From Acidobacteriota bacterium (GTDB lineage: Bacteria; Acidobacteriota; Vicinamibacteria; Vicinamibacterales; UBA2999), in NCBI GenBank assembly GCA_046726375.1, contig JBKPAJ010000045.1:52-64051 (forward strand): a stretch of 64,000 nt of DNA, read 5' to 3'. The position numbers and the translations under genes are program-made. Below the pieces are notes generated by a model. That model searched no databases and was not told the origin of the DNA. It was given only the letters and a program-made list of their open reading frames with translations. The stretch's first letter is position 1; each line of letters opens with the position of its first letter. Below, piece after piece: positions 8,572 to 64,000 of the stretch.

Positions 8572-8642
8572 CGCGTTGTGGGCAGCGTAAAGGGCGCCGC
8601 AGGGCGATGTCCTGACAGAACCATGAGAAAGGCTGATTCCTC

Positions 8643-40808: not shown

Positions 40809-40811
40809 CCG

Positions 40812-40839
40812 TTGACAATATATCCATAGTGGCTATATC
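40812..40839 (+). promoter_or_regulatory. Candidate sigma70-type promoter (TTGACA-N16-TATATC) overlapping the palindrome ATATATCC-N5-GGCTATAT upstream of padR
   Basis: Read directly from the sequence. The half-sites match 7 of 8. The start codon lies about 10 nt downstream of the -10 element. Confidence 0.35.
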
Positions 40840-40849
40840 GTCGGTGGAT

Positions 40850-41209
40850 ATGGCCGCGGACGACGCCGAATCGCTGTTGCCGCTTCGGCCGGCGACGTTT
40901 CACATTCTGATGGCGCTTGCCGATGAAGATCGGCACGGCTACGCCATCATTCAGGAAATTGCGGCGCGTACCAACGACGAAATTCGGATGAGCGCCGGCA
41001 CGCTGTATCGATCCATCCAGCGCATGATCGAACAGGATCTGATCGTCGAGATCCACGAGCGCCCGGCGCCCGAATTCGACGATGAACGCCGCCGGTATTA
41101 TCGGATTACGAAGTTTGGCACCGCCGTGGCGCGCGCCGAGACGCGCCGCTTGCAGGATCTGGTGCGCCTCGCCCGCGCCAGTGGCTTCCTTCCAAGGAAC
41201 GCGTCGTGA
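40850..41209 (+). CDS. PadR-family transcriptional regulator
   Basis: The winged-helix core is FHILMALADEDRHGYAIIQEI....SAGTLYRSIQRMIEQDLI. The stop overlaps the ADOP permease start. Confidence 0.85.
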   Translation: MAADDAESLLPLRPATFHILMALADEDRHGYAIIQEIAARTNDEIRMSAGTLYRSIQRMIEQDLIVEIHERPAPEFDDERRRYYRITKFGTAVARAETRRLQDLVRLARASGFLPRNAS

Positions 41210-48867: not shown

Positions 48868-49515
48868 TTGGCCCAGATTTTTCCCCCTTGGTGGAACAAG
48901 CTGCCGATCGTCGCCGCCATCGCGGGCGTCCTCGCGCCGACGCTCGCCGTCGCGGGCGTCTGGTACTACTTTTCCCCGTGGTACACAGACGTTGGCTACC
49001 GTCCGGTTCAGCCCGTCCCGTACAGCCACAGGCTCCACGTCGGCGAGCTTGGTCTCGATTGCCGCTACTGTCACGCCTCGGTCGAGATTTCTAACGTCGC
49101 CAACGTTCCGCCCACACAGACGTGCTTGAACTGCCATCAGACCGTGAAGCGGGACAGCCCGCTGCTCGCACCGATTCGGGACAGCGCCCAGAGTGGCCGG
49201 CCGATGCACTGGATTCGCATTCACAAGCTTCCCGACTATGCCTATTTCACACACCGCGCGCACGTGTCGGCAGGAATCGGCTGCGTGACCTGCCACGGCC
49301 GCATCGACGAAATGGAAACGGTCACCCAGATGACGCCGCTCAGCATGAGCTGGTGCCTCGACTGCCACCGCAACCCGGGTCCGAATAGACGCCCGGTCTC
49401 GGAAGTCACCAACATGAAGTGGACGCCTCCGCGGGACATACAAGCGCTCACGGCGCAGCTCGACCGCGAACGACCGGTCAATCCGCCGACTGAGTGTTCG
49501 GGGTGCCACCGGTGA
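48868..49515 (+). CDS. actA: Alternative complex III subunit ActA-like pentahaem cytochrome c
   Basis: An N-terminal TM helix is followed by VGYRPVQPVPYSHRLHVGELGLDCRYCH. Five CxxCH motifs are present (CRYCH, CLNCH, CVTCH, CLDCH, CSGCH). The start codon is TTG. Confidence 0.85.
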   Translation: MAQIFPPWWNKLPIVAAIAGVLAPTLAVAGVWYYFSPWYTDVGYRPVQPVPYSHRLHVGELGLDCRYCHASVEISNVANVPPTQTCLNCHQTVKRDSPLLAPIRDSAQSGRPMHWIRIHKLPDYAYFTHRAHVSAGIGCVTCHGRIDEMETVTQMTPLSMSWCLDCHRNPGPNRRPVSEVTNMKWTPPRDIQALTAQLDRERPVNPPTECSGCHR

Positions 49516-52500
49516 GTCGGACCTACTGGCGAAGTCTCGCGCAGATCGAGGACCGCCCCGAATTCCGCGCCGCTCTCGAGCGCGAATTCCCGGAGGGTGC
49601 CTCGGAGCTTCCTGCAGGGATCACCCGGCGCGAAATGATGATGCTCGTGGGTGCCTCGCTGTCGCTCGCGGGGCTCGCGGGGTGCCGGCGCCCGGTCGAA
49701 GAGATTGTCCCCTTCGTCACCGCTCCCGAGGAGATCGTCCCCGGGATCCCGCGCTACTACGCCACGACAATGCCGTTCGGCCGGAGCGCCTACGGCCTGA
49801 TCGTCGAGAGCCACGAAGGGCGACCGACCAAGATCGAGGGAAACCCCGCGCACCCCTCGACCCTCGGAGCCTCCAGCTCGCGCGTCCAGGCATCCGTGCT
49901 CGGCCTCTACGATCCTGACCGCTCGCAAGCCGTCAGGTTGAAAGGGGAGCGGAAGGCCTGGAGCGATTTCGTGACCGCTTGGGGACCGCTGTCCGAGGCT
50001 CATGCAGCGGATGGGGGCGCCGGCCTTGCGGTCCTCTGCGAGTCCTTCTCCTCGCCAACTCTGGCGCGCTTGGGCGTCGAACTCCGTGCTCGCTATCCGA
50101 AAGTACAGTGGGCGACCTACGACGCCGTCAGCGACGAGAACCGGCTCGCTGGTCTGCGGTCCGCCACGGGGCGCGGCCTCGACCTCATGCTCCGGCTCGA
50201 TCAAGCGTCCGTCATCCTCACCCTCGACGCCGACCCGCTCCTGACCGACCCCGAGATGATCCGTCACACCCGGGACTTCGCGGCCGGAAGGCGTGCCGGA
50301 GCCTCGGGTGGCGCGATGAACCGACTCTACGCTGTGGAAGGGGTCTACTCGCTGACGGGAGCCATGGCGGATCATCGGCTTCGTCTCGAGAGCCGCCAGA
50401 TCGCGCCCTTCCTCGCCGCCCTCGCTGTACGCCTTGCTCCGCCCGCGGCTGGAGCCGCGATCCAAGCGGCAGCGAGCGTCCCGGGTGTCGACCCGCGCTG
50501 GATCGACGCGCTTGCCAAGGACCTTCTGGCGAACCGCGGCAAGGGGTTGATCGTGGCTGGGGAACGCCAGCCCGCCGCCGTCCATGCCGCCGTCTGCGCC
50601 CTGAACACGTATCTCGGCAATACCGGCAGGACGGTCACCTACTTCGAGACGAAGGACGCGGCGCTTCCGAGCGTGAGCTCGCTGGCCTCGCTCGCCTCCG
50701 CGATGAAAGCGGGATCGGTCCAGACGCTGGTCGTCCTCGGCGGCAATCCTGTGTTCGATGCCCCCGCCGATCTCGACTTCGCGTCGGCCATGGCGAAGGT
50801 CCCTCACTCGATCGCGCTCGGGCACACGGTCGACGAAACATCCTCCAACGCGGAGTGGCATATCCCTCGTGCTCACTACCTCGAATCGTGGGGAGACGCG
50901 CGCGCGATAGGAGGCGCGCTCAGCGTCGTGCAGCCGCTGATCCTCCCCCTGTTTGGCGGACGAAGTCCCGTTGAAGTGCTGGGGCTGATGGTCGGGGGCA
51001 AGGATAGTCCCGGCTACGACATCGTGCGCGAGACCTGGAAACCGATCCTCGGCGAGGGCGAGTTCGACAAGAAGTGGAACCGCGTCCTGCACGATGGATT
51101 CCTTGCCGGCAGCGAGCTTCCCGAAGTCCTTCCGGATCTCACCAAGGAGCCCTTTGCCGATCTCGCGCGCCTGATCGGAGGCGCGAGCGGAGCCGGATCC
51201 CGGGCCGATGCGGGATCTCCGGGTGGCCTGGAGATCGTGTTTCTCCCATCCCCGTGTCTTCACGACGGCCGATTCGCCAATAACGGGTGGCTGCAGGAGC
51301 TTCCCGATCCCCTCACCAAAATCACGTGGGACAACCCCGCGCTCGTGAGCCCCAAGACCGCCCAGTCACTCGGTCTTGCGAATGAGGAAGTAGTCCGTCT
51401 CGATTATGCGGGCCGCTCGCTCGAGCTCCCCATCTGGATCCTCCCCGGCATGGCCGACGGCGTGGTGGCCCTCACCCTCGGCTACGGTCGTCAGCGCGCA
51501 GGGCGGATTGGGTCCGGGGTCGGGTTCGACACGTTCATGGTCCGATCGTCCCGCGCAACTGGCTTCGACAACGGCGTCAAACTTACCAGGCTCGGACGCA
51601 AGTACCCGCTTTCACCGACGCAGGACCACGGCAGCATGGAGGGCCGTCCCCTCGTCCGCGAGTCGACGCTGGCCGAGCTTCGATCGGACCCGGCCTCGCA
51701 GTCAGCACGAGCCGAGAGCGCGCATGAGGGGAGTTCGCCACAGGCCCCCAAAGGAGGAGGAGTCCCCGGCACACTTGGCGTCTTCGAGGAGGAACCGCAT
51801 CACTTCTCACTCTGGAAGGAGCATACCTACGATCAGGGCCACCAGTGGGGGATGACCATCGACTTGAACGCCTGCATCGGCTGCAACGCGTGCATGACGG
51901 CGTGCCAGAGCGAGAATAACGTGCCGGTTGTCGGCAAGATCCAGGTTGCGAAACAGCGCGAGATGCACTGGCTGCGGGTCGACCGGTACTTCTCCGGCGA
52001 GCCCTCCGGCAGCCCGGAGGTCGTTTTCCAGCCAGTTCCCTGCATGCAGTGCGAGGATGCCCCTTGCGAGCAGGTCTGCCCCGTGGCCGCGACCGTCCAC
52101 GACAGGGAGGGCCTCAATGTGATGGTCTACAACCGGTGCATCGGGACCCGATACTGCTCGAACAACTGTCCCTACAAGGTTCGCCGCTTCAATTTTTTCA
52201 ACTTCACCAAGGACACGCCCGACATCCTCAAACTCGCGATGAACCCGGACGTCACGGTCCGCGCGAGGGGCGTCATGGAGAAGTGCACCTACTGCACGCA
52301 GAGGATCAGTCGGGCGAAGATCGATGCGAAGCTCGCGGGGCGCGCGCTCCGTGACGGCGACGTCAAGACGGCCTGCCAGCAGGCCTGCCCGGCCTCGGCC
52401 ATCGAGTTCGGAGATCTTCGGGACGCGTCGAGCCGGGTCGTGAAGGCGAAGGCCGACCCGCGCAACTACGCGCTCCTCGACGAGCTGAATACCAGGCCAA

Positions 52501-52607
52501 GGACGACCTATCTGGCCAAGGTGCGCAACCCGAATCCGGACCTCGAGGGCGCGCGGACCGACGCGGGAGCCTGGCCCGCAGAGAAGGAAGAAAGGCCCGT
52601 TTCATGA
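49512..52607 (+). CDS. actB: Alternative complex III subunit ActB-like (Tat-exported molybdopterin-oxidoreductase-like domain fused to a 4Fe-4S ferredoxin domain)
   Basis: The N-terminus is YWRSLAQIEDRPEF, the Tat signal is ITRREMMMLVGASLSLAG, and HEGRPTKIEGNPAHP is present. The ferredoxin half has CIGCNACMTAC, CMQCEDAPCEQVCP, CIGTRYCSNNCPYKVRRFNFF and CQQACP. A GTG start overlaps the actA stop. Confidence 0.9.
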   Translation: MSRTYWRSLAQIEDRPEFRAALEREFPEGASELPAGITRREMMMLVGASLSLAGLAGCRRPVEEIVPFVTAPEEIVPGIPRYYATTMPFGRSAYGLIVESHEGRPTKIEGNPAHPSTLGASSSRVQASVLGLYDPDRSQAVRLKGERKAWSDFVTAWGPLSEAHAADGGAGLAVLCESFSSPTLARLGVELRARYPKVQWATYDAVSDENRLAGLRSATGRGLDLMLRLDQASVILTLDADPLLTDPEMIRHTRDFAAGRRAGASGGAMNRLYAVEGVYSLTGAMADHRLRLESRQIAPFLAALAVRLAPPAAGAAIQAAASVPGVDPRWIDALAKDLLANRGKGLIVAGERQPAAVHAAVCALNTYLGNTGRTVTYFETKDAALPSVSSLASLASAMKAGSVQTLVVLGGNPVFDAPADLDFASAMAKVPHSIALGHTVDETSSNAEWHIPRAHYLESWGDARAIGGALSVVQPLILPLFGGRSPVEVLGLMVGGKDSPGYDIVRETWKPILGEGEFDKKWNRVLHDGFLAGSELPEVLPDLTKEPFADLARLIGGASGAGSRADAGSPGGLEIVFLPSPCLHDGRFANNGWLQELPDPLTKITWDNPALVSPKTAQSLGLANEEVVRLDYAGRSLELPIWILPGMADGVVALTLGYGRQRAGRIGSGVGFDTFMVRSSRATGFDNGVKLTRLGRKYPLSPTQDHGSMEGRPLVRESTLAELRSDPASQSARAESAHEGSSPQAPKGGGVPGTLGVFEEEPHHFSLWKEHTYDQGHQWGMTIDLNACIGCNACMTACQSENNVPVVGKIQVAKQREMHWLRVDRYFSGEPSGSPEVVFQPVPCMQCEDAPCEQVCPVAATVHDREGLNVMVYNRCIGTRYCSNNCPYKVRRFNFFNFTKDTPDILKLAMNPDVTVRARGVMEKCTYCTQRISRAKIDAKLAGRALRDGDVKTACQQACPASAIEFGDLRDASSRVVKAKADPRNYALLDELNTRPRTTYLAKVRNPNPDLEGARTDAGAWPAEKEERPVS

Positions 52608-53209
52608 ACGTCCGCACACGTCGCGTGCTGGGCGCGCTCGCGTTGACCTCTCTTTTCGCCCTCCCCGGCTGCGCGCGCGGCTGCACGTCGAGCCGTCCTC
52701 CCATCCATCTCAACCCGAGCATGGACGACCAGCCGAAGGTCCTCTCGCAGACGGCCAGCGATTTCTTCTTCAACGGTGCGTCCATGCGCGAGCCCGTTCC
52801 GGGAACGGTCCCGATCGGCGGGCTGAAGGAAGACACGGCCTTCTTCACCGGAAAGGGGGCGGACGGACAGTTCGTCGCGGCGATCCCCCATCCCGTGGAC
52901 GAAGCGCTTCTCGAGCGCGGCCGCCAGCGCTACGCGATCTACTGCCAGCCTTGCCACGACGCTCGAGGGGACGGCAAGGGGATCCTGTTCCAGCGAGGCA
53001 ACGTCCCCACCGCTACATTCCACCAGGACAAGATCCTGAACTACACGGACGGGCAGATCTTCGACGTCATCACGAACGGGGTAGGGCTGATGCCGGCGTA
53101 CCGCTGGCCGATCCCTCCTGCGGACAGGTGGGCGATCATCGCCCACGTGCGAGAGCTCCAGCGCAAGCGCCAGGCGAGCGCCACTGTCGCGCCCGCGGGT
53201 ATCAAGTGA
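52604..53209 (+). CDS. actE: ActE-like lipoprotein monohaem cytochrome c
   Basis: It has a lipobox-like FALPGC and a single CQPCH. The motifs GVGLMPAY and DRWAIIAHVRELQ are present. The start overlaps the actB stop (ATGA). Confidence 0.75.
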   Translation: MNVRTRRVLGALALTSLFALPGCARGCTSSRPPIHLNPSMDDQPKVLSQTASDFFFNGASMREPVPGTVPIGGLKEDTAFFTGKGADGQFVAAIPHPVDEALLERGRQRYAIYCQPCHDARGDGKGILFQRGNVPTATFHQDKILNYTDGQIFDVITNGVGLMPAYRWPIPPADRWAIIAHVRELQRKRQASATVAPAGIK

Positions 53210-53223
53210 GTGAGGGAGGCACC

Positions 53224-55158
53224 ATGTCCAATGGCGTGATGAACGGCGCGATGAACCGGAAGGTGTTGTTCCTTCTCGGTCCCGTCACCGTCCTGGTGAT
53301 GTTCGCCGCGGTAGTGTGGATGGCTTCGCAACTGGTGAGCCGCGAGTACAGGGAGCCTTACCGAGCCCCTGCCGCGACCGCGGACCCGACGCCACGCACG
53401 GAAGGACTGGTCGCCGAAAGGGCCGATGCGGAGGCGAAGGCGCGGGCGAAGCCATACGAAGAGGTCGAATACCGGACTGTTCCGGTTGTCGGAAGCCGCG
53501 TGGCCATCTGGGCGGTCGCGCAACTCCACCTGCTATTTGCGGCGTTCGTCCTTGCCGTCCCAATCTTCGCGTTCATCATCGAGGTGATTGGCTACAAGAC
53601 CGGAGATCTGCGATACGACCGGCTCGCGTACGAGTTCACAAAGCTGCTCTCCACCTCCTTCTCACTCACCGCAACCTTCGGAGCGTTCCTGACGTTCATG
53701 CTCATCATTCTGTATCCGAAGTTCACGAACTACCTGATGAGCGTGTTCTCCCCCACCTTTCTGCCGTACGTGCTGCTCTTCTTCGCCGAGGCCTTCTTCC
53801 TCTACACCTATTACTACGGCTGGGGGAAGTTCCATCCCTTGGTTCATCTTGGCCTGGGGCTCGGCCTCAACCTCGTGGGCACGGGGATCATGCTCATTGC
53901 CAACGCCTGGCTCACGTTCATGATGTCGCCGCGGGGGGTTTCGGACCAAGGGGCGGTTCTCTCCGTCTGGGACGCGGTCTACAACCACACGTGGATGCCG
54001 ATCAACGTCCATCGCGTCATCGCGAACATCGCGTTCGGCGGATCGGTCGCGGCCGCCTACGCCGCCTTCAAGTTCCTGCAGGCGGAAACCGACGAGGACC
54101 GGGCGCACTACGACTGGATGGGTTACATCGGTAACTTCGTCGCGATCAGCGCCTTCCTCCCGCTTCCCTTCGCCGGCTACTGGCTCGCGAAGGAGATCTA
54201 CGCGTTCTCGCAGACGCTCGGGCTTACGATGATGGGCGGGGCTTTCTCGTGGCTCTTCATCATCCAGGCCGTATTGATTGGGAACCTTTTCCTCGCCGCC
54301 AATTACTATCTCTGGCTCGGGATGGGGCGGGTCGAGGGGGTGCAGCCGCTTCAGAAGGTCATTAAGTACCTTCTCATCGGGATTGCGCTCTGCTTCGCGG
54401 TCTGGGCGACGCCGCGGTCGATCATCGCAACCGTTTCCGAACTCCGGGCAATGGGAGGGTCGACACACCCGATTCTCGGTTACCTCGGTGTCATGTCGGC
54501 CAAGAACACCGCCGTGAACATCCTGATCCTCACGACGTTCATGAGCTTCCTTCTATATCGCCGGACGGGAAAGGTCGCCACGGTCGCGTGGGCAAAGATG
54601 GGGCATGCGGCGCAGCTCACCATCTTCGCGGGTGCCGCGATCTTCGTCATCTTCCTCGGCATCTATGGGTACTTCGTCGAGGCAACGGTCCGGATCGGTC
54701 TGTCCGTGCCGCAAGTCAGCTCGGTTCTCGTCGCCATGGTGTCGATCACGGCCATCGACCTCTTCCTCTTCCGCGGGGCGAGGAAGACGGGCGAGGTACG
54801 GTGGGGAAGGATGCCCGCGGTCTCCCAGTACGTGCTGATCTTCATCGCGGTCACCTTCACCTGGCTCATGGGGCTCATGGGCTACGTTCGCTCCGGGCTC
54901 CGTCAGCATTGGCACGTGTACGGCGTCATTCGTGACAACTCGGCCGACGCGTTCACGCCCACCCTTGGGTTCGCGACGCGGGTTATCTCGGTGACCGTTC
55001 TCGCGTTCTTCCTCTTGATCGGGTTCGTGTTCTGGATCACGAGCCTGCATGACCGGCCCGATTTCAAGGCGGCCAAGGCCCGCCTCCGCCCACACTCTGA
55101 CGAGATGGAGCCGGAGTTCGCCATGGAAACGGCAGCCGAACATAGGCAGACGTCATGA
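53224..55158 (+). CDS. Cytochrome bd-like (CydA-family) ~14-TM membrane protein without a recognisable Q-loop
   Basis: By-eye alignment to E. coli CydA gives AVAQLHLLFAAFVLAVP ~ LTAMYHFLFVPLTLG, FFAEAFFLYTYYYGWGKF ~ FFLESTFVGLFFFGWDRL, LIANAWLTFMMSP ~ LVANGWMQNP, and INVHRVIANIAFGG ~ KFVHTVASGYVTG. A GAGGGAGG RBS precedes the ATG at 53224. Confidence 0.75.
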   Translation: MSNGVMNGAMNRKVLFLLGPVTVLVMFAAVVWMASQLVSREYREPYRAPAATADPTPRTEGLVAERADAEAKARAKPYEEVEYRTVPVVGSRVAIWAVAQLHLLFAAFVLAVPIFAFIIEVIGYKTGDLRYDRLAYEFTKLLSTSFSLTATFGAFLTFMLIILYPKFTNYLMSVFSPTFLPYVLLFFAEAFFLYTYYYGWGKFHPLVHLGLGLGLNLVGTGIMLIANAWLTFMMSPRGVSDQGAVLSVWDAVYNHTWMPINVHRVIANIAFGGSVAAAYAAFKFLQAETDEDRAHYDWMGYIGNFVAISAFLPLPFAGYWLAKEIYAFSQTLGLTMMGGAFSWLFIIQAVLIGNLFLAANYYLWLGMGRVEGVQPLQKVIKYLLIGIALCFAVWATPRSIIATVSELRAMGGSTHPILGYLGVMSAKNTAVNILILTTFMSFLLYRRTGKVATVAWAKMGHAAQLTIFAGAAIFVIFLGIYGYFVEATVRIGLSVPQVSSVLVAMVSITAIDLFLFRGARKTGEVRWGRMPAVSQYVLIFIAVTFTWLMGLMGYVRSGLRQHWHVYGVIRDNSADAFTPTLGFATRVISVTVLAFFLLIGFVFWITSLHDRPDFKAAKARLRPHSDEMEPEFAMETAAEHRQTS

Positions 55159-55778
55159 TGATCCCGCACACTGTCAGGGTCGGCGCTCTCGTTATCGCAG
55201 CGACTTCGTTCTATACATACGTCGGCCAGCTGGTACCGCAGAAGGAAGTTCTGCCTCCGCAGGAGACTGTGATCAGATCCGACCTGACCACAGCCGACAT
55301 GGTCAAGGTAGGCCGCGAGATCATGGACGGCAAAGGACTCTGCTTTACCTGCCATACGATCGGCAAGACGGGGGCGCTCCGGTTCCCCGACCTCGAGGGA
55401 GTCGATGCCCGTGCGCAGAGCCGCGTCCCCGGCCTGAGCGATGTCGAGTACTTCGCTCAATCGATCTACACACCTGACGCCTTCATCGTGCCGGGATTCA
55501 ATCCGGGCATGCCCGTCATCAACAAGCCGCCGATCGGCCTCACCGATCAGGAGATCCTCTGCGTGATCGCGTACCTCCAGAGTCTTGGCGGCACGCCGAC
55601 GGTCACGCTCCAGACGAGTCACCGCTTCTACACTGCCCCGGCCACAGCCGGCGCGGCGCCAGGTGCGCCTCCGACCGCGCCGGGCGAGAAGTTGCCCCTC
55701 GTCGCTCCTCCGGCCGAGAATGCCGCGCCGGGCGCGGCGACGGTACCCGCAGCCCCCGGGAAGGCAGTGAAACAATGA
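55155..55778 (+). CDS. Membrane-anchored monohaem class-I cytochrome c with Ala/Pro-rich tail
   Basis: It has an N-terminal TM helix, a CFTCH motif, and a distal GMPVINKPP region. The tail is AGAAPGAPPTAPGEKLPLVAPPAENAAPGAA. The start overlaps the previous stop (ATGA). Confidence 0.75.
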   Translation: MMIPHTVRVGALVIAATSFYTYVGQLVPQKEVLPPQETVIRSDLTTADMVKVGREIMDGKGLCFTCHTIGKTGALRFPDLEGVDARAQSRVPGLSDVEYFAQSIYTPDAFIVPGFNPGMPVINKPPIGLTDQEILCVIAYLQSLGGTPTVTLQTSHRFYTAPATAGAAPGAPPTAPGEKLPLVAPPAENAAPGAATVPAAPGKAVKQ

Positions 55779-56593
55779 ACCTCCTCGTCGTCCTCGCCGT
55801 GGCCGCCGCGTTCGTGCTCCTTCGCTTCCGTCGGGCCAATCTGCTGATATGGGCCTGCGCCTGGTGGGTGGGGATCTATGTCCTCCTTCGATTTGGATTC
55901 ACTGCCCCGATTCCCTCCTCTGTTGTCAAGATCTACATGGGAATCAGCTCGATTGCGATCCTGGCGTACATGTCCTCCAGCCAGGAGCGTCGCCAGGAAG
56001 TCTCCCGCCCGCTGATCCGGCTCATGACCGACAGGCGGTACACAGTGCTGCTCTTCGCAATGGTCGTCGCCCTTCCGGCGCTCGCGGCCGCGAACGTTTA
56101 CGTCACCATGAACGCGCCCCTCGAGCCTCCCTTCTTCCCGCGCACGATTCATCCTGCATCGCCTTCCGAAATCACGGTTCACGACAAGAAGATCGCGATC
56201 GACACCGGAGATAGCCCCTTCCGACATCTCGAAACGTCGAGTCCGGAAGAGTTCCGCAAACATCTCGAGAACGGCCGCCGGGTCTATTACCGGAACTGCG
56301 TCTTCTGCCACGGCGACAACATGGCCGGCAACGGCATGTTCGTGCACGGGCTGAACCCGATCCCGACCAACTTCGCCGATGGGGACACGATCGCGAACCT
56401 TCGAGAGACATTTCTGTTCTGGCGAGCCGCTAAGGGAGGCCCCGGGCTGCCCGACGAAGGCGGGCCTTGGGACACGGCCATGCCCGCCTGGGAGAACTTC
56501 CTGAAGGAAGACGAGATCTGGGATGTGATCCTCTTTATCTACGATTTCACGGGCGAGAGGCCGCGCGCCAGAGAGGAGGTCGCGCAGCAATGA
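55775..56593 (+). CDS. Membrane protein (3-4 TM helices) fused to a monohaem cytochrome c domain
   Basis: Hydrophobic helices span residues 1-110. These are followed by a CVFCHGDNMAGNG motif and a distal AMPAW. The start overlaps the previous stop (ATGA). Confidence 0.7.
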   Translation: MNLLVVLAVAAAFVLLRFRRANLLIWACAWWVGIYVLLRFGFTAPIPSSVVKIYMGISSIAILAYMSSSQERRQEVSRPLIRLMTDRRYTVLLFAMVVALPALAAANVYVTMNAPLEPPFFPRTIHPASPSEITVHDKKIAIDTGDSPFRHLETSSPEEFRKHLENGRRVYYRNCVFCHGDNMAGNGMFVHGLNPIPTNFADGDTIANLRETFLFWRAAKGGPGLPDEGGPWDTAMPAWENFLKEDEIWDVILFIYDFTGERPRAREEVAQQ

Positions 56594-58284
56594 TCTCTCG
56601 CCTGGTAGCCCACGGGTGCGTCGTCGTGGTGCTCGCTTTGTCGGGTGTCGCGCCGGCGGGATTGGTGCGCGCGCAGGGCCCCGACCTTGGCACCGAGGCG
56701 CAGCGGGAGTCGGGCAAGAACACCTATCTCAAAAACTGCTCGCAGTGTCACGGCGAAAAAGGGGACGGCGAAGGCTACGCCACGCCGCATCTCCTCCCCA
56801 AGCCGCGCAACTTCACAACGGGCAAGTTCAAGGTTCGCACGACGCCCAACGGAGCGCTTCCTACGCACCAGGACCTCGTCAACATCATCAGGCGCGGCAT
56901 GCCCTACACTTCGATGCCCGCCTGGCCCAACTTCTCCGACCAGGAAGTATCGGATCTTGCCTACTTCATAAAGACTTTCTCCGCCGACTTCTCCAACCCC
57001 GAGCTTGCCCCCCAACCGGTTTCGTTGCCGAGCGCGCCGAGCACCACGAAAGAGTCAATCGAGCTCGGGAAGAAATTGTACGAGGAGACCGGTTGCGTAA
57101 AGTGCCACGGCACGCTCGGTCGAGGCGACGGACCTTCGGCTTCAACGCTGGTGGACGAGTGGAACCATTTGATACGCGCGGCGGACCTCTCGCAAAGGTG
57201 GACCTTCCGGGGAGGTTCGACTCGCGAGGATATCTTCCGGACGATGACCACAGGACTCAACGGCACGCCGATGGCGTCCTTTTCCGACGCCCTTACGCCC
57301 GAGCAACGATGGGCGATCACAGACTTCATCGTCTCTCTCTCGGCGAGCGACGGGCCTGGCTATACCAACCTCGTCGTCGCCAAACACGTTCAGGATCCGA
57401 TCGATCTGACGAAGGGCGCCGCGAACTTCGAATCCGCGGCTGTCGCACGCTTTCCGATCATCGGACAGATCATGGAGCCCGGACGCGCGTTCCATCCTCC
57501 CGCCACCTCCGTGACCGTTCAGGCAATCTACGACGCGGAGTCGATCGCCCTCCTCGTTCGATGGCACGACATGAGCGCGCAGAGGACCGGAAAGAACGAG
57601 CCGTCGCTTCCCGTGCCGCCGGAGGAGGAGGAGGAGGAGGAAACCGTCGCTCCGAAGGGGGGCATCTTTGGCGAGGAGGAAGTCGCCCAGCCTCCGGCCC
57701 AGGACCCCTTTGCGGAACCCGCCGCCGCGGCGACCGCCGCGCCATCGGAGTTCTCCGACGCCGTCGCCATCCAGATCCCTTCGCAGGTGCCAACCGGCGC
57801 CCGCAAGCCCTACTTCATCTTCGGTGACGGCCAGAACTCAGTGGATCTCTGGTTCTTCGATTTGGCGCGCCCCGATCCGCTTCAGTTCACGGGCCGGGGA
57901 AGCGCGAACGTCGCGCCCAACGACACGGGGGATGTCACCGGCGTCGCGAGCTACGACCAGGGAGAATGGTCAGTCGTCTTCAAGCGGCCCCTTCGCGCAT
58001 CCGCGGGCGCCGCGTTTACCCCCGGAGAATTCATGCCCATCGCCTTCTCAGTCTGGGACGGGTTCTCGCGTGAGCGTGGCAATCGGCGAGGTCTCTCGTT
58101 GTGGTACTCCCTCTACGTCGAGCCCGAAAACGTCCCCTCGGCCATCGGCCCGATGGTTAGGACTGCGCTCTTGATCCTCGTCATCGAGTTGGCAGTCATC
58201 GGCTGGGGGCGATCGCGTTACGGTTCTCGGACCCGCGACGAGATTGGCGGTGAGGGGAGACAGCACCCGGCCACGAGCGTTTGA
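56590..58284 (+). CDS. Di-haem cytochrome c fused to an EB_dh/DOMON-type haem-binding domain, with a C-terminal TM anchor
   Basis: A signal peptide is followed by CSQCH and CVKCH with MPAW/GTPMA distal regions. The EB_dh-like stretches are AIYDAESIALLVRWHD, DAVAIQIPS...KPYFIFGDGQNSVDLWFF, GEWSVVFKRPL and IAFSVWDGFSRERGNRRGLSLW. There is an acidic insert PPEEEEEEE and a terminal helix TALLILVIELAVIGW. Confidence 0.7.
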   Translation: MISRLVAHGCVVVVLALSGVAPAGLVRAQGPDLGTEAQRESGKNTYLKNCSQCHGEKGDGEGYATPHLLPKPRNFTTGKFKVRTTPNGALPTHQDLVNIIRRGMPYTSMPAWPNFSDQEVSDLAYFIKTFSADFSNPELAPQPVSLPSAPSTTKESIELGKKLYEETGCVKCHGTLGRGDGPSASTLVDEWNHLIRAADLSQRWTFRGGSTREDIFRTMTTGLNGTPMASFSDALTPEQRWAITDFIVSLSASDGPGYTNLVVAKHVQDPIDLTKGAANFESAAVARFPIIGQIMEPGRAFHPPATSVTVQAIYDAESIALLVRWHDMSAQRTGKNEPSLPVPPEEEEEEETVAPKGGIFGEEEVAQPPAQDPFAEPAAAATAAPSEFSDAVAIQIPSQVPTGARKPYFIFGDGQNSVDLWFFDLARPDPLQFTGRGSANVAPNDTGDVTGVASYDQGEWSVVFKRPLRASAGAAFTPGEFMPIAFSVWDGFSRERGNRRGLSLWYSLYVEPENVPSAIGPMVRTALLILVIELAVIGWGRSRYGSRTRDEIGGEGRQHPATSV

Positions 58285-58310: not shown

Positions 58311-60350
58311 ATGTACAAGAGCATTTACGTTCCCGTCGATAACTCAGACCACTCCAACCGCGCGGTCGCTTGCAGCGTGGCGTTGGGCAAGGCGTTCTCC
58401 GCAAAGCTGGTCGGCTGCCATGTCTACGCGGCAAAACTGCACGACTATCGCTTCAGGCAGATGGAGTACACCCTGCCGGAGGAGTACATCGACGAGGTTG
58501 AACTGGAGCGCCAGCGGAAGATCCACGACAGCCTCATCACGATGGGTCTTAAGCTCATCTCCGACAGCTATCTCGATGGCATGTCGCGTCTCTGCGGCGA
58601 GTCGGGCCTCAGGTTCGAGCCGCGGATGATGGACGGGAAGCATCACATCGAGATCCTCAAGGACCTCGCCGGCTCACAGCACGACTTGGTCGTGATCGGC
58701 GCCCTGGGAGTCGGTCGCGCACGCGACAGCGTGATCGGCTCGGTCTGCGAACGTGTCGCGCGCCAGTCCGACCGCGACGTCTGGGTAGTCAAGCACGTAC
58801 CCGAGCCAGGCGAGCCGGAGCGCGACACGATTCTGGTCGGCATCGACGGCAGCCCACAGTCATTCGGCGCGCTGATGACCGCCATCGAACTGGCACGCAC
58901 GTTCGGCAAGCAGATCGAAGCGATCGCCGTGTACGACCCCTATCTGCACTACTCCGTCTTCAACGGCATCGTCAACGTCCTCACCGAGCAGGCGGCCAAG
59001 GTCTTTCGCTTCGAGGAGCAGAATCAGCTTCACGAGGAGATCATCGACACCGGACTCGCGCAGATCTATCAGTCGCATCTCGAGGTGGGCGAGCGGATGG
59101 CGAGCGAGGACGGCGTCACGATCAAGAAGACGCTCCTCGACGGCAAACCTTTCCAAAAGATCCTCGACCACGCGCGCAAAACGAATCCGTGGCTGATCGT
59201 GGTAGGGCGCATCGGAGTCCACAGCCCGAAGGACGAGACGGGGCTCGGGAGCAACGCGGAGAACATTCTCCGCGCCGCACACTGTGATGTCCTCCTCTCG
59301 ACGCGACTGGAAGTGCCCCGGCTCGACGTGCGCGCCGAGGAGACCGTCCGATGGACGCCCGAAGCCGAGGCGCGCATGCAGAATGTGCCCGAGCAGGTCA
59401 AGGGGATCGCCCGTACCGGCGTTCTTCGTCTGGCGCTCGAGAAGGGGCATTCGGTGATCACGAGCGCCGTGATCGATGAAGCAATGGATCGGTTCATGCC
59501 GAAGAGCGCTTCGGCTGCGACGAAGGCGCTGGCCGAGGCAGTGGCGCTCGAGCGGGCGAAGTCCGGCCCCGTCTCGCTCTGCCGGTCGTGCGGCGTCGCC
59601 GCCACGCAAAGCGGCGCGGTCAAGTGCACCGTCTGCGGCGCCACGGATTTCGAGGTGATCTCGCAGGAGATGATCGAGAAGATCGCCGCGGTGGAGGGCG
59701 GGCTCGAGGAAGAGACGACCTATGACGGACGCAAGCTGCGCTGGTCTGAGGACGCACGGAAAGGCCTCTGGACCATGAAGAACGCGTATCAGCGCCGCCG
59801 CGTCAAGGCGCGTGTCGAAAAGCGCGCGCGCATGATGAAGCTCGACGCGATCACGCTCGATTTCGCACGACAGGTAATCGAGGAGGAGACCGGAGCGCCG
59901 CTCGAGGTCCAGGGTCGTGGCGCGCAAATCCCTGAGAGCGCTGCCGCTGCAGCGGGCGAGGCCCGGCTCGTGGCGCGCGACGACAAGAAGAATCCGCTGA
60001 TCTCCACGTTCGCGTGGACAGACGAGGCCGCGCAGAGGATCCTTCGGGTTCCGGCCGGTTTCATGCGCAACAAAACGCAGGAGAGGATCGAGGAGCTTGC
60101 GCGGGAGCGCGCCGCGACGACGATCGATCTTGGGCTCGTCGAAGAGGGAATCGAGATCGGCAAGCGGATGATGGCCGAGATGATCGCGAACTACCCGTCA
60201 CAGGGCAAGAGCCCTGGAGTCGCGACGGCGGCGCCGGATTCGGCAGCCAACTCCGCGACATCCAATGGCAACGGCTACCTCAATGAGGTAAGTGCGCGGC
60301 CGCCTGTGACGACCGAGCGACCTGCGTCCCGCGACCATCGGGAGACGTGA
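58311..60350 (+). CDS. Multidomain protein: 2 x universal stress protein domains + zinc ribbon + three PCP_red-like (protochlorophyllide-reductase-B C-terminal-like) domains
   Basis: The USP starts are MYKSIYVPVDNSDHS and ILVGIDGSPQS, each with a ...VVGRIG/VIGALG end. The zinc ribbon is CRSCG..CTVCG. The three PCP_red-like repeats are VRWTPEAEARMQNVPEQVKGIARTGV, LRWSEDARKGL and FAWTDEAAQRILRVPAGFMRNKTQERIE. A GGAGGA RBS is present. Confidence 0.6.
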   Translation: MYKSIYVPVDNSDHSNRAVACSVALGKAFSAKLVGCHVYAAKLHDYRFRQMEYTLPEEYIDEVELERQRKIHDSLITMGLKLISDSYLDGMSRLCGESGLRFEPRMMDGKHHIEILKDLAGSQHDLVVIGALGVGRARDSVIGSVCERVARQSDRDVWVVKHVPEPGEPERDTILVGIDGSPQSFGALMTAIELARTFGKQIEAIAVYDPYLHYSVFNGIVNVLTEQAAKVFRFEEQNQLHEEIIDTGLAQIYQSHLEVGERMASEDGVTIKKTLLDGKPFQKILDHARKTNPWLIVVGRIGVHSPKDETGLGSNAENILRAAHCDVLLSTRLEVPRLDVRAEETVRWTPEAEARMQNVPEQVKGIARTGVLRLALEKGHSVITSAVIDEAMDRFMPKSASAATKALAEAVALERAKSGPVSLCRSCGVAATQSGAVKCTVCGATDFEVISQEMIEKIAAVEGGLEEETTYDGRKLRWSEDARKGLWTMKNAYQRRRVKARVEKRARMMKLDAITLDFARQVIEEETGAPLEVQGRGAQIPESAAAAAGEARLVARDDKKNPLISTFAWTDEAAQRILRVPAGFMRNKTQERIEELARERAATTIDLGLVEEGIEIGKRMMAEMIANYPSQGKSPGVATAAPDSAANSATSNGNGYLNEVSARPPVTTERPASRDHRET

Positions 60351-61192
60351 GCGCCTACCGCTTCTGCCGCACGGATGACATCGCGCTTCTCGTTGACGCG
60401 CTGAATCGCTGCTGGGCTCCGTACTTTCCCGACGAGCCGCCCATGACGCCAGCCGCGTTCAAGCGGTCGATCCGCGACCTTCAGGTCTGGTGCAGCAGCT
60501 GCATGGTCGCCTTCTCCGGTTCCGACCCGATCGGCGTGCTCATCGGCGCCAAGCGGCCTTCCGGCACCCTCGTCTACAAGATTGCCGTCCATCCCGATCA
60601 TCGTCGACAGGGTCATGGGCGTCACCTGCTCGCCTCGCTGGGCTCGAAACTCGCGATTCTCGGCCCGCCGAGAATTGTTGCCGAGGTCCCCGAGACTCTC
60701 GCGCCTGCTCACGCGCTGTTCAGCGCAAGCGGATATGTCCAGGAAGCGCTCCTGACTGACTACGTCTTACAGTGTGAAGAGAAAGGCGGCGAACAAAGCG
60801 GATTCGTGATCCCTGTCACGATCGACGATCTCGCCGCCAATGATCTTCTTGGAGAGGCTCAGGTTTGCTGGAAGCGCTCCGTGGAGACTCTCACTGCAAC
60901 GAAGGACGACATCGCGGGACTCGCCGTCGTCGCCGACGAGCGAATCGAAGCCTACCTCCTGTACGTAAAGCGCGGAATGGAGGAGACGGAGATTCTATCG
61001 CTCCGCTGTTTCATCGATGATGGTGGAGCGCGTTTGAAGCAACTGCTGTCGCGACTCCGCGCGCGACACACGGAGACCTTCCGGTTCCCAAAGGTCCACC
61101 CGGCCGAGGTCTCGAAGGAGTGGCTGGAGAAGCTCGGTTTCAGCCCTGACGGTGGGCACTTACTCTACGCAACGAGAGCGCGGTCCGCTTGA
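60347..61192 (+). CDS. GNAT-family N-acetyltransferase (two-lobed)
   Basis: Acetyl-CoA motif A is IAVHPDHRRQGHGRHLL. A GTG start overlaps the previous stop (GTGA). Confidence 0.7.
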   Translation: MSAYRFCRTDDIALLVDALNRCWAPYFPDEPPMTPAAFKRSIRDLQVWCSSCMVAFSGSDPIGVLIGAKRPSGTLVYKIAVHPDHRRQGHGRHLLASLGSKLAILGPPRIVAEVPETLAPAHALFSASGYVQEALLTDYVLQCEEKGGEQSGFVIPVTIDDLAANDLLGEAQVCWKRSVETLTATKDDIAGLAVVADERIEAYLLYVKRGMEETEILSLRCFIDDGGARLKQLLSRLRARHTETFRFPKVHPAEVSKEWLEKLGFSPDGGHLLYATRARSA

Positions 61193-61193
61193 T

Positions 61194-61406
61194 TCAGTAA
61201 CGAGCTCCTCGCGCTTCGTCTGCACCCGGTCGAGTTTGTCGGGCCCCACCAACGTCAGGGCCAATGTCGGGGTGGCCACGCGGCTTCCACCATGTAAACC
61301 AAGTGTGTCCGTGCGCTCTCCCGCGACGGATGTACCAGATGTAGTACGGCACCCACAGCCCGATTAAGAGCACGAGCGCGATTGTGAGGCCAATCGAGAT
61401 GTCCAT
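61194..61406 (-). CDS. Small single-TM protein, unknown function
   Basis: 70 aa. A GGGAGGAG RBS lies 8 nt upstream of the ATG. The N-terminal helix is ISIGLTIALVLLIGLWVPYYIWYI. It is convergent with the GNAT gene. Confidence 0.45.
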   Translation of the reverse strand: MDISIGLTIALVLLIGLWVPYYIWYIRRGRAHGHTWFTWWKPRGHPDIGPDVGGARQTRPGADEARGARY

Positions 61407-61562
61407 TGCTCAGCTCCTCCCGTGCAAAGATCTCTGATGCAAGCGGCGATCCTGGCGGCGAGCTCGTCTTGCGCGGCTGCGACGGTGTAAGCTATCAACC
61501 CTCGCCCTTCACAAACTCAGGCCGAGGCTGAACAAGGTCGAAGGTCCGGAACATCGGCAAAG

Positions 61563-62471
61563 ATGAAGCGCTACCACGAGATCGTCGGCGACGGAGGGTC
61601 CAGAATTCTCGAGCAGGTTGCCGAGCAACGCACCCGCATCACCGATGGGCTCGCCGCCGTGCGTCATCTCGTGGCCGTGGGCTCCGGCAAAGGCGGAGTC
61701 GGCAAGAGCACTTTGACGCTACATCTCGCGAGCGCTCTGCGCGCCCGGGGGCTTCGGATTGCGATCCTGGACGCGGACCTCAACGGCCCTTCACTGGCGC
61801 GCATGGCGGGTGTCCAACGTGCGCTGTTCGTCCCCGGCAGCAACAAGGTCGCGCTCCCGCGCACCGGGACCGGAATTGGCGTCTTCTCGATGGGCTCGGT
61901 GATCCCCGAATCGGAGGCGCTCGAGTTCGAGAGTGCGGCGCACGGAGAGTCCCACACGTGGCGCGCCACGAGGGAGTTTGCTCTCCTGGGCGAGATCCTC
62001 GGGTCCTTCGAGTGGGGAACGCTCGATCTGCTGATGTTCGATCTGCCGCCGGGAGCCGAGCGGACCGTACAGTACGCCGATTTTCTTGGGCCGCGGACCT
62101 CGTTCCTGCTCGTGACCATCCCTTCCGAGGTGGCACGCGGCGTGGTCGCGCGCTCGGTGGCAGCTCTGTCGAAGGGACCTAATCGCCTCCTCGGTTACGT
62201 CGAGAATATGAGCGGCTACTACTGCCGCGACTGCGACGCCATCAAGCCGCTGTTCGTGTCACCCGAACCCTTCGACGACGCTCAGGACAGGCGATCGGGC
62301 TTGGGGATCCCCTGCCTCGGGACCGTCCCATTCGATCCCGAGCTTGCACGGCACTGCGATCGGGGGACCTCCCTCGCGGAACTGCCCAACACACCCGTTG
62401 GCCGCGCCCTGGAGCATGTTGCGCAGCAACTTCTGGGCAGCCTCGGATCCACAACGGAGCCTTCCCGATGA
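61563..62471 (+). CDS. Mrp/NBP35/ApbC-family P-loop ATPase (Fe-S cluster carrier)
   Basis: The deviant Walker A is VGSGKGGVGKST. The motifs DADLNGPS and DLPPG, and the CxxC motif YYCRDCD, are present. Confidence 0.85.
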   Translation: MKRYHEIVGDGGSRILEQVAEQRTRITDGLAAVRHLVAVGSGKGGVGKSTLTLHLASALRARGLRIAILDADLNGPSLARMAGVQRALFVPGSNKVALPRTGTGIGVFSMGSVIPESEALEFESAAHGESHTWRATREFALLGEILGSFEWGTLDLLMFDLPPGAERTVQYADFLGPRTSFLLVTIPSEVARGVVARSVAALSKGPNRLLGYVENMSGYYCRDCDAIKPLFVSPEPFDDAQDRRSGLGIPCLGTVPFDPELARHCDRGTSLAELPNTPVGRALEHVAQQLLGSLGSTTEPSR

Positions 62472-62935
62472 AGTTCCTCTGCATCCCCTGCGACAGCCCG
62501 ATGAAGCTCCAAACCATCGGTCCGCCCGAGCGCGGCTCGCTGTCGGTCGTCTACTCGTGTCCTGAGTGCGGATACGAAATCGCGATGCTCACCAATGCGT
62601 ACGAAACGCAGATCGTCCAGTCACTCGGCGTGCGGGTCGGCCCCGAGGGCGGCACAGCGGAGGAAGGCACGTCCGACAGCCGCTGCCCGTTCAACGCGAT
62701 GATTCCGGCGATGGATGATGCGCGACCCTTCGACGCTGCTCAGGGCAGGCCCGATCAGGCCGACGAGCCGATTACCGTTCGGTGGACTGCCGCCGCGGAA
62801 GCCCGTCTCGCAAAGGTTCCCGAGTTCGTCCGCCCAATGGCGAAGAGCGGCATCGAGAGATTCGCCCGAGAGCGGGGAGCACTGGAGGTTGACGAGAACG
62901 TCCTGGACGCTGCCCGTGAGTTCTTTGGTATGTAA
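62468..62935 (+). CDS. Zinc-ribbon + PCP_red-like domain protein
   Basis: The N-terminus has CIPC...CPEC. The C-terminal stretch VRWTAAAEARLAKVPEFVRPMAKSGIERFARERG resembles the PCP_red repeats of 58311-60350. The start overlaps the Mrp stop. Confidence 0.6.
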   Translation: MKFLCIPCDSPMKLQTIGPPERGSLSVVYSCPECGYEIAMLTNAYETQIVQSLGVRVGPEGGTAEEGTSDSRCPFNAMIPAMDDARPFDAAQGRPDQADEPITVRWTAAAEARLAKVPEFVRPMAKSGIERFARERGALEVDENVLDAAREFFGM

Positions 62936-64000
62936 TGAGCGATTTCGCCCGTCCCTACGTCGTCTCTTGGAACCTTACCTACCGCTGCAACCTCGCCTGC
63001 GAGCACTGCTATCTCGACGCCGGCGGCACGCCTCTGGTCACGACCGAGAACTTCGCCGATCGGAGCGAGCTCGGCACCGAGGAGTGCTTCAAGGTCATCG
63101 ATGAAATCGCCGCTTTCGCGCCTGAATGCCTTACGATCCTGACGGGGGGCGAGCCGCTCTTGCGGCGCGACATCCTCGAGATCGTCCAGCGCGCAGCGGA
63201 GCGTGGACTTTGGGTCGTCGTCGGCACCAACGGCGTGCGCATCACCGAGAACGTGGCGCGGCGCCTGGCGGAGGCCGGAGGACGGGGACTCTCTCTTTCC
63301 CTCGATGCTCTCGATCCCGATCGTCACGACCGCTTCAGAAGAGTACGTGGCGCCTGGCGAAACACAGTGGAGGGAGCGGAGATCCTCAACAGGGCCGGGC
63401 TTCCCTTCATCGTGCAGACAACCGCGGGCTCGCACAATCTCGACGAGCTCGAAGCGATCGCCGACTTCGCGCACGATCGCCTCGCCGCCAAGGTCTGGAA
63501 CCTCTACTTCCTGGTGCCGACGGGGCGCGGGCAGTTCGTGTCGGACATGACCCCCGAGCAGTACGACGACGTGCTCGCCTCTCTCTACCGGATCCAGCGG
63601 CAGTACGACCGCCGGATGCTCGTGAACGCGAAGTGCGCTCCGCATTACATCAAGACCGTTCTGGAGAATGCCGGCGCCGAGACCGATCCGATCCCGACAG
63701 ATGGCGAATCGGCGAGGGCGCCCTCGTGGCGCGGTCTGTCCCAGATCAGGACCTACTCCGGAGGGGCCGGCGGCTGTCCGGCGGGGACGCACTACATGGG
63801 GATACGGCCAAACGGCGATGTCACCCCTTGCCCCTACCTCCCGGTCTTCGCGGGGAATCTTCGCAGCTCGACTCTCGCAGACCTCTGGACGTCTTCGGGG
63901 CTGTTCGCCGACATTCGCCGTCGCTCCTCACTCGGGGGCCGGTGCGGAGCGTGCGAGATGAACGCCCATTGCGGGGGCTGCCGCGCCCGGGCCTACGGGA
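62935..64000 (+). CDS. Radical SAM/SPASM enzyme of the NirJ/AhbC/AhbD (tetrapyrrole-modifying) type, 3'-truncated by the window end
   Basis: My own translation gives MSDFARPYVVSWNLTYRCNLACEHCY (CxxxCxxC), LTGGEPLLRRD, VGTNG, SLDALDPDRHDRFR, YFLVPTGRG, and SPASM-like cysteines GGCPAG...PCPYLP...GRCGACEMNAHCGGCRARAY. The frame is open to the end of the window. This ORF is absent from the supplied ORF track because it has no stop. Confidence 0.85.
   Translation, partial: MSDFARPYVVSWNLTYRCNLACEHCYLDAGGTPLVTTENFADRSELGTEECFKVIDEIAAFAPECLTILTGGEPLLRRDILEIVQRAAERGLWVVVGTNGVRITENVARRLAEAGGRGLSLSLDALDPDRHDRFRRVRGAWRNTVEGAEILNRAGLPFIVQTTAGSHNLDELEAIADFAHDRLAAKVWNLYFLVPTGRGQFVSDMTPEQYDDVLASLYRIQRQYDRRMLVNAKCAPHYIKTVLENAGAETDPIPTDGESARAPSWRGLSQIRTYSGGAGGCPAGTHYMGIRPNGDVTPCPYLPVFAGNLRSSTLADLWTSSGLFADIRRRSSLGGRCGACEMNAHCGGCRARAYG

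Follow-up and report, generated by a model that had tools for sequence, protein, structure and literature searches.

Acidobacteria are reported to make haem by the coproporphyrin-dependent pathway with HemQ (PMC5095920), and AhbD has been reported in organisms that use this pathway and have no other Ahb enzymes, as an oxygen-independent alternative (PMC13564367). Among terminal oxidases, the OR-N branch of the bd superfamily keeps the N-terminal helices of CydA, is missing the quinol-binding part and has alternative electron donors (bioRxiv 10.1101/2021.01.16.426971). Here we describe a set of five genes, ending in the gene for an AhbD-like radical S-adenosylmethionine (SAM) enzyme, that lies behind a bd-like oxidase operon in a 64,000-nucleotide stretch of the genome of a soil Acidobacteriota bacterium (contig JBKPAJ010000045.1, positions 52 to 64,051; hereafter the window). 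A sequence-only reading of the window had proposed a tetrapyrrole and Fe-S maturation set dedicated to the bd-like complex and possibly making a modified haem for it. The maturation set is well supported by family placement, by its PCP_red domains and by co-occurrence: the radical SAM enzyme does not group with peptide-modifying enzymes, the genes travel with bd-like genes in other lineages and the PCP_red assignment holds. Dedication to the bd-like complex and a modified haem do not follow from what we found.

We instead give an even chance to a reading in which the recurrent part of this set, the module, would be an oxygen-independent haem b synthase with a haem hand-off, linked to terminal oxidases at low oxygen. 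All five genes were recovered where the sequence-only reading had placed them, and every one of its domain calls held in hidden Markov model (HMM) searches. They are listed here with two context features.

58311-60350, plus strand: 679-aa protein with two universal stress protein (USP) domains, a Cys4 zinc ribbon and three PCP_red repeats, hereafter USP-PCP_red (Pfam, family HMM)
60347-61192, plus strand: GNAT acetyltransferase, 281 aa (Pfam)
61563-62471, plus strand: Mrp/NBP35 (ApbC-like) P-loop Fe-S carrier ATPase, 302 aa, with a CRDC motif, hereafter Mrp (Pfam)
62468-62935, plus strand: Cys4 zinc ribbon and PCP_red protein, 155 aa, hereafter ZnR-PCP_red (Pfam, PDB sequence search)
62935-64000, plus strand: AhbD-like radical SAM/SPASM enzyme, hereafter rSAM, cut by the window end after 355 codons
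61194-61406, minus strand: conserved gene for a small membrane protein, 70 aa, with a strong GGAGGAG ribosome-binding site (conservation)
48868-58284, plus strand: bd-like oxidase operon, the context upstream of the module genes (Pfam)

The radical SAM enzyme and its recurrent partners

The window fragment of rSAM matches Radical_SAM at 91 bits and SPASM at 40 bits in Pfam. Its CX3CX2C motif reads CNLACEHC (aa 18-25), the auxiliary-cluster cysteines of SPASM are present and the invariant cysteines are kept across 22 members of the family. Judging from full-length orthologues, which have 453-461 aa and the order Radical_SAM, SPASM and PCP_red, about 100 aa lie beyond the window edge, the C-terminal PCP_red domain among them. 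We scored a full-length orthologue against curated NCBIfam models and found AhbD (TIGR04545) at the top with 293.5 bits (cut-off 500), followed by NirJ2 (TIGR04055; 278 bits, cut-off 500), TIGR04053 (262 bits, cut-off 395), NirJ (TIGR04051; 154 bits, cut-off 515), AhbC (137 bits, cut-off 650), the mycofactocin maturase (128 bits, cut-off 265) and PqqE (120 bits, cut-off 381). The fragment itself reached 269.6 bits on AhbD, and NirJ gave 147-154 bits over fragment and full-length protein. NirJ2 we take to be the name for AhbD in Firmicutes. Because AhbD and NirJ2 score best and yet stay under their cut-offs, we class the enzyme as AhbD-like, and on these scores it is not an AhbD equivalog. The earlier designation as a NirJ/AhbC/AhbD-type enzyme thus narrows to its AhbD/NirJ2 part, with NirJ and AhbC dropping out at about half the bits of AhbD.

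The likeness to AhbD/NirJ2 extends over the entire Radical_SAM and SPASM core (model positions 2-339 of 339), covers the CX3CX2C and auxiliary-cluster cysteines and includes the lack of AhbA, AhbB and AhbC, as for AhbD in coproporphyrin-pathway organisms. Unlike those enzymes, rSAM always carries one to four C-terminal PCP_red domains and is accompanied by a USP-PCP_red protein, often with Mrp and a small PCP_red protein as well. With NirJ and AhbC it shares membership of the SPASM radical SAM superfamily acting on iron tetrapyrroles; no nirS, nirF or nirDLGH genes were found near rSAM in the neighbourhoods examined. Among 1.84 billion representative proteins, 922 relatives fall below an E-value of 1e-30, and those that align over the full length, PCP_red included, are 40-49% identical to rSAM. 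The nearest relatives without the PCP_red fusion are themselves AhbD/NirJ2-like. In a neighbour-joining tree of 81 core sequences the PCP_red-fused enzymes form one clade (bootstrap 73/100), apart from an archaeal group and from AhbD enzymes with AhbA/B-like domain fusions.

A SPASM architecture is common to many peptide maturases, and small open reading frames (ORFs) occur near some loci (72 aa in L088, 63 aa in L083). We therefore weighed a role for rSAM in maturing a ribosomally synthesised and post-translationally modified peptide, with PCP_red as the recognition domain and a small neighbouring ORF as the precursor. We find this very improbable. All peptide-maturase models score 138 bits or less, well under their own cut-offs and far from the 293 bits of AhbD, and no small ORF is conserved across lineages. 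The 70-aa ORF of Vicinamibacteria codes for a membrane protein and lies on either side and either strand. Every tetrapyrrole link of the module, from AhbD likeness to the HemY and ChdC associations described below, also weighs against a peptide substrate.

We followed the module through 169 related loci, 80 from Vicinamibacteria (L001-L080) and 89 diverse loci from outside that class. USP-PCP_red, Mrp, ZnR-PCP_red and PCP_red-fused rSAM recur together in about 20 rSAM lineages, including distant ones in which rSAM is 40-49% identical. In distant family members USP-PCP_red almost always adjoins rSAM, and both an Mrp/ParA ATPase and a small or multi-repeat PCP_red protein are often close by. The GNAT gene, for which we found no homologue in any of the 89 diverse loci, lies for that reason outside the conserved core. 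AhbA/B-like genes are absent from the window and from all 169 loci, a pattern in line with reports of AhbD alone in coproporphyrin-pathway organisms (PMC13564367; PMC5095920). Neither the module nor the rSAM-PCP_red architecture nor the PCP_red-ChdC fusions discussed below turned up in the searchable literature. What appears to be new here is the domain architecture of this putative AhbD-type haem synthase, together with its partner proteins and its consistent link to terminal oxidase operons.

PCP_red domains and the last steps of haem b synthesis

Pfam matches for all five proteins exceed the gathering cut-offs. PCP_red (PF08369, gathering score 32.5 bits) scores 79.1 bits for USP-PCP_red, 57.5 bits for ZnR-PCP_red and 46.8 bits at the C-terminus of full-length rSAM, so that the earlier assignment passes HMM thresholds. 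A family-specific HMM places three repeats in the USP protein, at aa 344-395, 474-525 and 565-616, the middle one degenerate and weak (E 5e-4). In PDB sequence searches the PCP_red parts match BchB C-termini (2xdq_B, E 1.4e-6) and the stand-alone PCP_red structures 2kru and 2l09. Structures of the NB-protein from 2010 are said to show a helical C-terminal segment of BchB covering the protochlorophyllide bound in dark-operative protochlorophyllide oxidoreductase (DPOR). The domains described here share clear homology and a W-T-x-E/A-A...IP-x-F-V-R motif with the C-terminal domain of BchB/ChlB. They differ from it in occurring without a nitrogenase-like protein, in numbering up to five repeats per protein and in being joined to USP, zinc-ribbon, radical SAM or ChdC-like modules.

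Gene neighbourhoods and domain fusions, from which our evidence on haem-pathway genes is drawn, connect the module to haem synthesis. First, a HemY-type copro/protoporphyrinogen oxidase gene directly follows rSAM in eight loci from several lineages (L087 at 7845-9284, L119, L137, L141, L150, L156, L163 and L168), with a gap of 4 nt in L087. The three of these proteins that we scanned (L087, L163 and L168) score 230-246 bits on TIGR00562 (cut-off 98), and for the remaining five the assignment comes from blastp (49-79% identity). Second, a ChdC/HemQ-like protein encoded 9.4 kb from the module rSAM in L092 (16301-16861) carries PCP_red as an N-terminal fusion. This architecture, PF08369 with PF06778 in about 315 aa, recurs in at least 40 protein clusters (P0271-P0310) whose source label is 'Nitrospirae chlorite dismutase family', and among curated models it comes closest to the peroxide-dependent haem synthase (121-139 bits, cut-off 235). 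PCP_red is thus attached to two unrelated families, AhbD-like rSAM and ChdC-like proteins, both of them coproheme-decarboxylase-like. A ChdC-like gene also lies about 9 kb downstream of rSAM in Vicinamibacteria. Together, HemY adjacency, the PCP_red-ChdC fusions and this downstream gene link the module to the final stage of haem synthesis by the coproporphyrin-dependent pathway. They point to ordinary haem b rather than to the modified haem of the sequence-only reading. The HemY-adjacent lineage has additional PCP_red repeats (3-5) on rSAM as well as on the USP protein.

The reaction we propose for rSAM is that of ChdC/HemQ; a ChdC-like gene stands in the same neighbourhood, and N-terminal PCP_red is shared in metagenome-assembled genomes labelled Nitrospirae. 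ChdC, in contrast to the radical SAM protein, has a ferredoxin-like fold and uses H2O2 or O2; the ChdC-like proteins in these loci score 119-139 bits, under the equivalog cut-off of 235. We surmise that rSAM would be an oxygen-independent coproheme decarboxylase of the AhbD type, converting coproheme to haem b, and would serve as the low-oxygen counterpart of peroxide-dependent ChdC/HemQ in the coproporphyrin-dependent pathway of Acidobacteria. Mrp would load the [4Fe-4S] clusters of rSAM. It has a KGGVGKS P-loop and CRDC visible in translation and a full-length ParA/NUBPL match (PF10609, 172.9 bits), as in Mrp/NBP35/ApbC and MrpORP carriers. It differs from them in staying under the equivalog cut-offs (MrpORP 154 bits, ApbC 102 bits) and in having no added N- or C-terminal domains; rSAM as its client is suggested by gene coupling. 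The PCP_red domains of rSAM and of the zinc-ribbon and USP proteins may bind the iron-tetrapyrrole substrate or product and relay it between enzyme and carriers. What the sequences themselves show is gene structure, domain content, the conservation of the module, the family placement of rSAM and the genomic links; the steps of this mechanism are inferred from them.

The tandem USP part would couple the module to the energy or hypoxia state of the cell, and hence to haem supply for the neighbouring oxidases; in Vicinamibacteria the coupled GNAT (Pfam GNAT families, about 36 bits) may likewise tie the module to this state and to the oxidase operon. Pfam finds Usp in two stretches (133 bits), and the best PDB sequence matches are the tandem USPs TTHA0350 and Mycobacterium tuberculosis Rv2623. 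The first USP domain has the G-x2-G-x9-G-S nucleotide-binding motif and the second comes close to it; unlike the tandem USPs, this protein goes on into a Cys4 ribbon and three PCP_red repeats. We count the resemblance to ATP-binding tandem USPs, Rv2623 included, in favour of a low-oxygen link, and likewise the regulator genes beside the module in L085, L119, L141 and L156.

The same resemblance could be read differently. If the module served mainly to sense stress or redox state and to regulate, the USP part would sense nucleotides, the Cys4 and PCP_red parts would make protein contacts and the substrate of rSAM would be another tetrapyrrole, a quinone or a lipid rather than haem. Rv2623 is hypoxia-induced, and the coupling of GNAT and USP genes in Vicinamibacteria recalls a mycobacterial acetyltransferase whose substrate is a USP. 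The module often has regulator genes beside it, among them a Crp/Fnr-type regulator in L085 and PAS-kinase and sigma-54 regulator genes in L119, L141 and L156, and in loci L098-L112 its neighbours include a UbiE-type methyltransferase and a B12-binding radical SAM protein. Even so, we judge such a role improbable: the rSAM core is clearly AhbD/NirJ2-like, HemY is adjacent in the eight loci given above, PCP_red is fused to two unrelated coproheme-decarboxylase-like families and Pfam detects no DNA-binding domain in the module proteins.

Should the haem b reading be right, many abundant soil and sediment bacteria, Vicinamibacteria and others source-labelled Nitrospirae, would own a second, oxygen-independent finishing route to haem b, built differently from characterised AhbD. 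PCP_red would then gain a general role as a coproheme- or haem-handling module beyond the chlorophyll enzyme DPOR, its one known setting.

Terminal oxidases beside the module

The bd-like operon of the window encodes, in order, a multihaem cytochrome c, an ActB-like Fe-S protein, a cytochrome c, a CydA-like protein, two cytochromes c and a cytochrome c-EB_dh protein (Pfam). The match of the CydA-like protein covers no more than the N-terminal half of the Cyt_bd_oxida_I profile (positions 2-239 of 418), and the operon seems to fit the published description of OR-N. Orthologues of this CydA-like protein, 48-68% identical over about 550 aa, stand beside the module in 26 of the 89 diverse loci and 26 of the 80 Vicinamibacteria loci. 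They span 5 of the roughly 20 rSAM lineages (Vicinamibacteria and four further, at a 60% identity threshold) and four arrangements, upstream or downstream and on the same or the opposite strand. Co-occurrence of the set with bd-like genes, as the sequence-only reading had anticipated, is thus borne out by one CydA subfamily in five deep lineages. An accident of Vicinamibacteria gene order had been a candidate explanation for this link and was overturned by a metagenome scan that found CydA in further lineages. In L140, moreover, the ZnR-PCP_red gene (5189-5671) lies inside the bd-like operon, between the cytochrome c and cytochrome c-EB_dh genes.

Other oxidases share this position. We counted a locus as well flanked when at least 8 kb was available on both sides, which left 50 Vicinamibacteria and 15 diverse loci. 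In the 50, the triad of Mrp, ZnR-PCP_red and rSAM adjoins a caa3 operon 41 times and the bd-like operon 21 times, which speaks against dedication to the bd-like complex. Counting any terminal oxidase operon within 10 kb, 43 of these 50 loci have one, as do 8 of the 15 diverse loci. In roughly half of the well-flanked loci no CydA-like gene occurs within 10 kb; there the neighbour is an A-type oxidase or HemY, or neither of the two is present. The module ends a COX1-CtaA-CtaB-COX3 operon in the L083 group, and in other lineages it precedes HemY alone. The linkage of the module to terminal oxidases is real, and it is not exclusive to the bd-like enzyme. Within Vicinamibacteria the bd-like operon is more than 10 kb away in about half of the loci, and a convergent cluster of caa3 and alternative complex III (ACIII) genes is nearly always present.

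These counts bear on a maturation system dedicated to the OR-N bd-like oxidase, and perhaps to an adjacent haem-copper oxidase, in which side-chain remodelling of an iron tetrapyrrole by rSAM would yield a specialised haem, or else the PCP_red proteins would insert haem into the oxidase. Such a system is unlikely in our view, though it draws on the recurrence of one CydA-like subfamily in four arrangements, on the ZnR-PCP_red gene within the L140 operon and on the place of USP-PCP_red behind the cytochrome c-EB_dh gene. Since the paper that defined OR-N (bioRxiv 10.1101/2021.01.16.426971) does not mention radical SAM genes, nothing known contradicts it. Against it stand the well-flanked loci that lack a CydA-like gene and the modules found behind COX1-CtaA-CtaB-COX3, next to HemY only or in neither setting; HemY adjacency and the PCP_red-ChdC fusions indicate mainstream haem b synthesis. 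Propionate decarboxylation of the AhbD type would also have no obvious tie to haem d chemistry, and to our knowledge E. coli has none of these genes yet makes haem d. Just as unlikely is a modified haem made for the active site of the bd-like enzyme, because the module also occurs without that oxidase and its haem-pathway links favour ordinary haem b. That the module acts as an oxygen-independent haem-maturation system for OR-N bd-like oxidases, and possibly for adjacent haem-copper oxidases, through either a modified haem or direct delivery into the active site, seems to us marginally less likely again. If such a dedicated route were real, no bd-family enzyme would have had a genetically defined route of cofactor maturation before it.

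Several points also weigh against the haem b synthase and hand-off that we favour. As rSAM falls under every curated equivalog cut-off (AhbD 293 against 500) and sits in a moderately supported clade of its own (73/100), a different substrate or reaction is quite possible. We know of no characterised AhbD enzyme that needs PCP_red partners or a USP protein, and we found no report of tetrapyrrole binding by PCP_red outside BchB in the literature searched. Nor does a synthase with hand-off explain why a locus should need up to five or more PCP_red domains. That one bd-like CydA subfamily keeps recurring beside the module, in rearranged order, hints at a job more specific than bulk haem b supply, as do ZnR-PCP_red within the L140 operon and USP-PCP_red as a tail gene. 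Whatever its chemistry, the conserved module gives genetic access to the OR-N bd-like oxidases, so far uncharacterised, and to their partner caa3 and ACIII complexes. It makes testable where these haem-rich complexes obtain their cofactor at low oxygen, and whether any of the haem is modified.

Gene organisation and lineage-specific neighbours

The sequence-only reading had treated the five genes as a single set. Its junctions are as described: USP-PCP_red starts 26 nt past the end of the cytochrome c-EB_dh gene (58284), a GTGA overlap joins USP-PCP_red to GNAT, and Mrp/ZnR-PCP_red and ZnR-PCP_red/rSAM overlap by ATGA and TAATG. GC content at third codon positions is 0.73-0.83 across the five ORFs. 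The single unit does not survive, since the 370-nt gap between GNAT and Mrp holds the conserved minus-strand 70-aa ORF. USP-PCP_red lies 12-196 nt behind the cytochrome c-EB_dh gene in all 34 Vicinamibacteria loci with sufficient upstream sequence, and the GNAT-to-Mrp distance ranges from 23 nt to about 8 kb across the 80 Vicinamibacteria loci, which marks this junction as an insertion hot spot. Given the tight spacing on one side and the variable distance on the other, there are two transcription units: USP-PCP_red and GNAT form the tail of the bd-like operon, and Mrp, ZnR-PCP_red and rSAM make up a coupled operon of their own. Scanning the region for promoters, terminators and Rfam families returned no sites or matches, so the two-unit structure rests on the opposite-strand ORF and the synteny breaks.

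In about 26 related loci the 70-aa ORF is mostly 60-91% identical and lies directly upstream of Mrp or directly downstream of rSAM; from these positions, it co-travels with the Mrp-rSAM operon or with the neighbouring caa3 cluster. Across the 80 Vicinamibacteria loci, identities are mostly 55-92% for the three genes of the Mrp-rSAM operon and 54-95% for USP-PCP_red and GNAT in the loci that have them. An exact-protein look-up with the window ZnR-PCP_red returned no match. The set had been thought possibly to continue past the window; in Vicinamibacteria relatives it ends at rSAM and is followed by convergent COX2/COX4/COX3/COX1 and ACIII genes (NrfD-like, ActD).

Farther upstream in the window, 39477-43800 encodes an amine-oxidase-family flavoprotein, with a PadR regulator and a permease of the MacB-type ABC class after it. 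The first of these genes (39477-40808) was considered as HemY/CgoX and set aside, with a match confined to the N-terminal FAD motif.

Individual lineages add further neighbours. A 140-aa protein with no family match, u140, is encoded between rSAM and a three-repeat PCP_red protein (L083:9687-10109 and relatives), in the lineage whose module lies behind COX1-CtaA-CtaB. In L098-L112 (for example L109:5520-7968 and L108:3518-4033) the UbiE-type methyltransferase and B12-binding radical SAM genes precede the module. The B12-binding protein comes closest to the cyanobacterial slr0320 family (448 bits, cut-off 775). A CopD-like 171-aa membrane protein is encoded behind the module in these loci; its match as a HemJ-like oxidase (24 bits, under the cut-off) was too weak to use. 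Finally, L119 (4323-6719) and L156 (4441-6777) encode a HEAT-repeat protein of 780-800 aa upstream of the module, with weak matches to the bilin lyase subunits CpcE/CpcF, and a PAS histidine kinase with a sigma-54 response regulator downstream of it.

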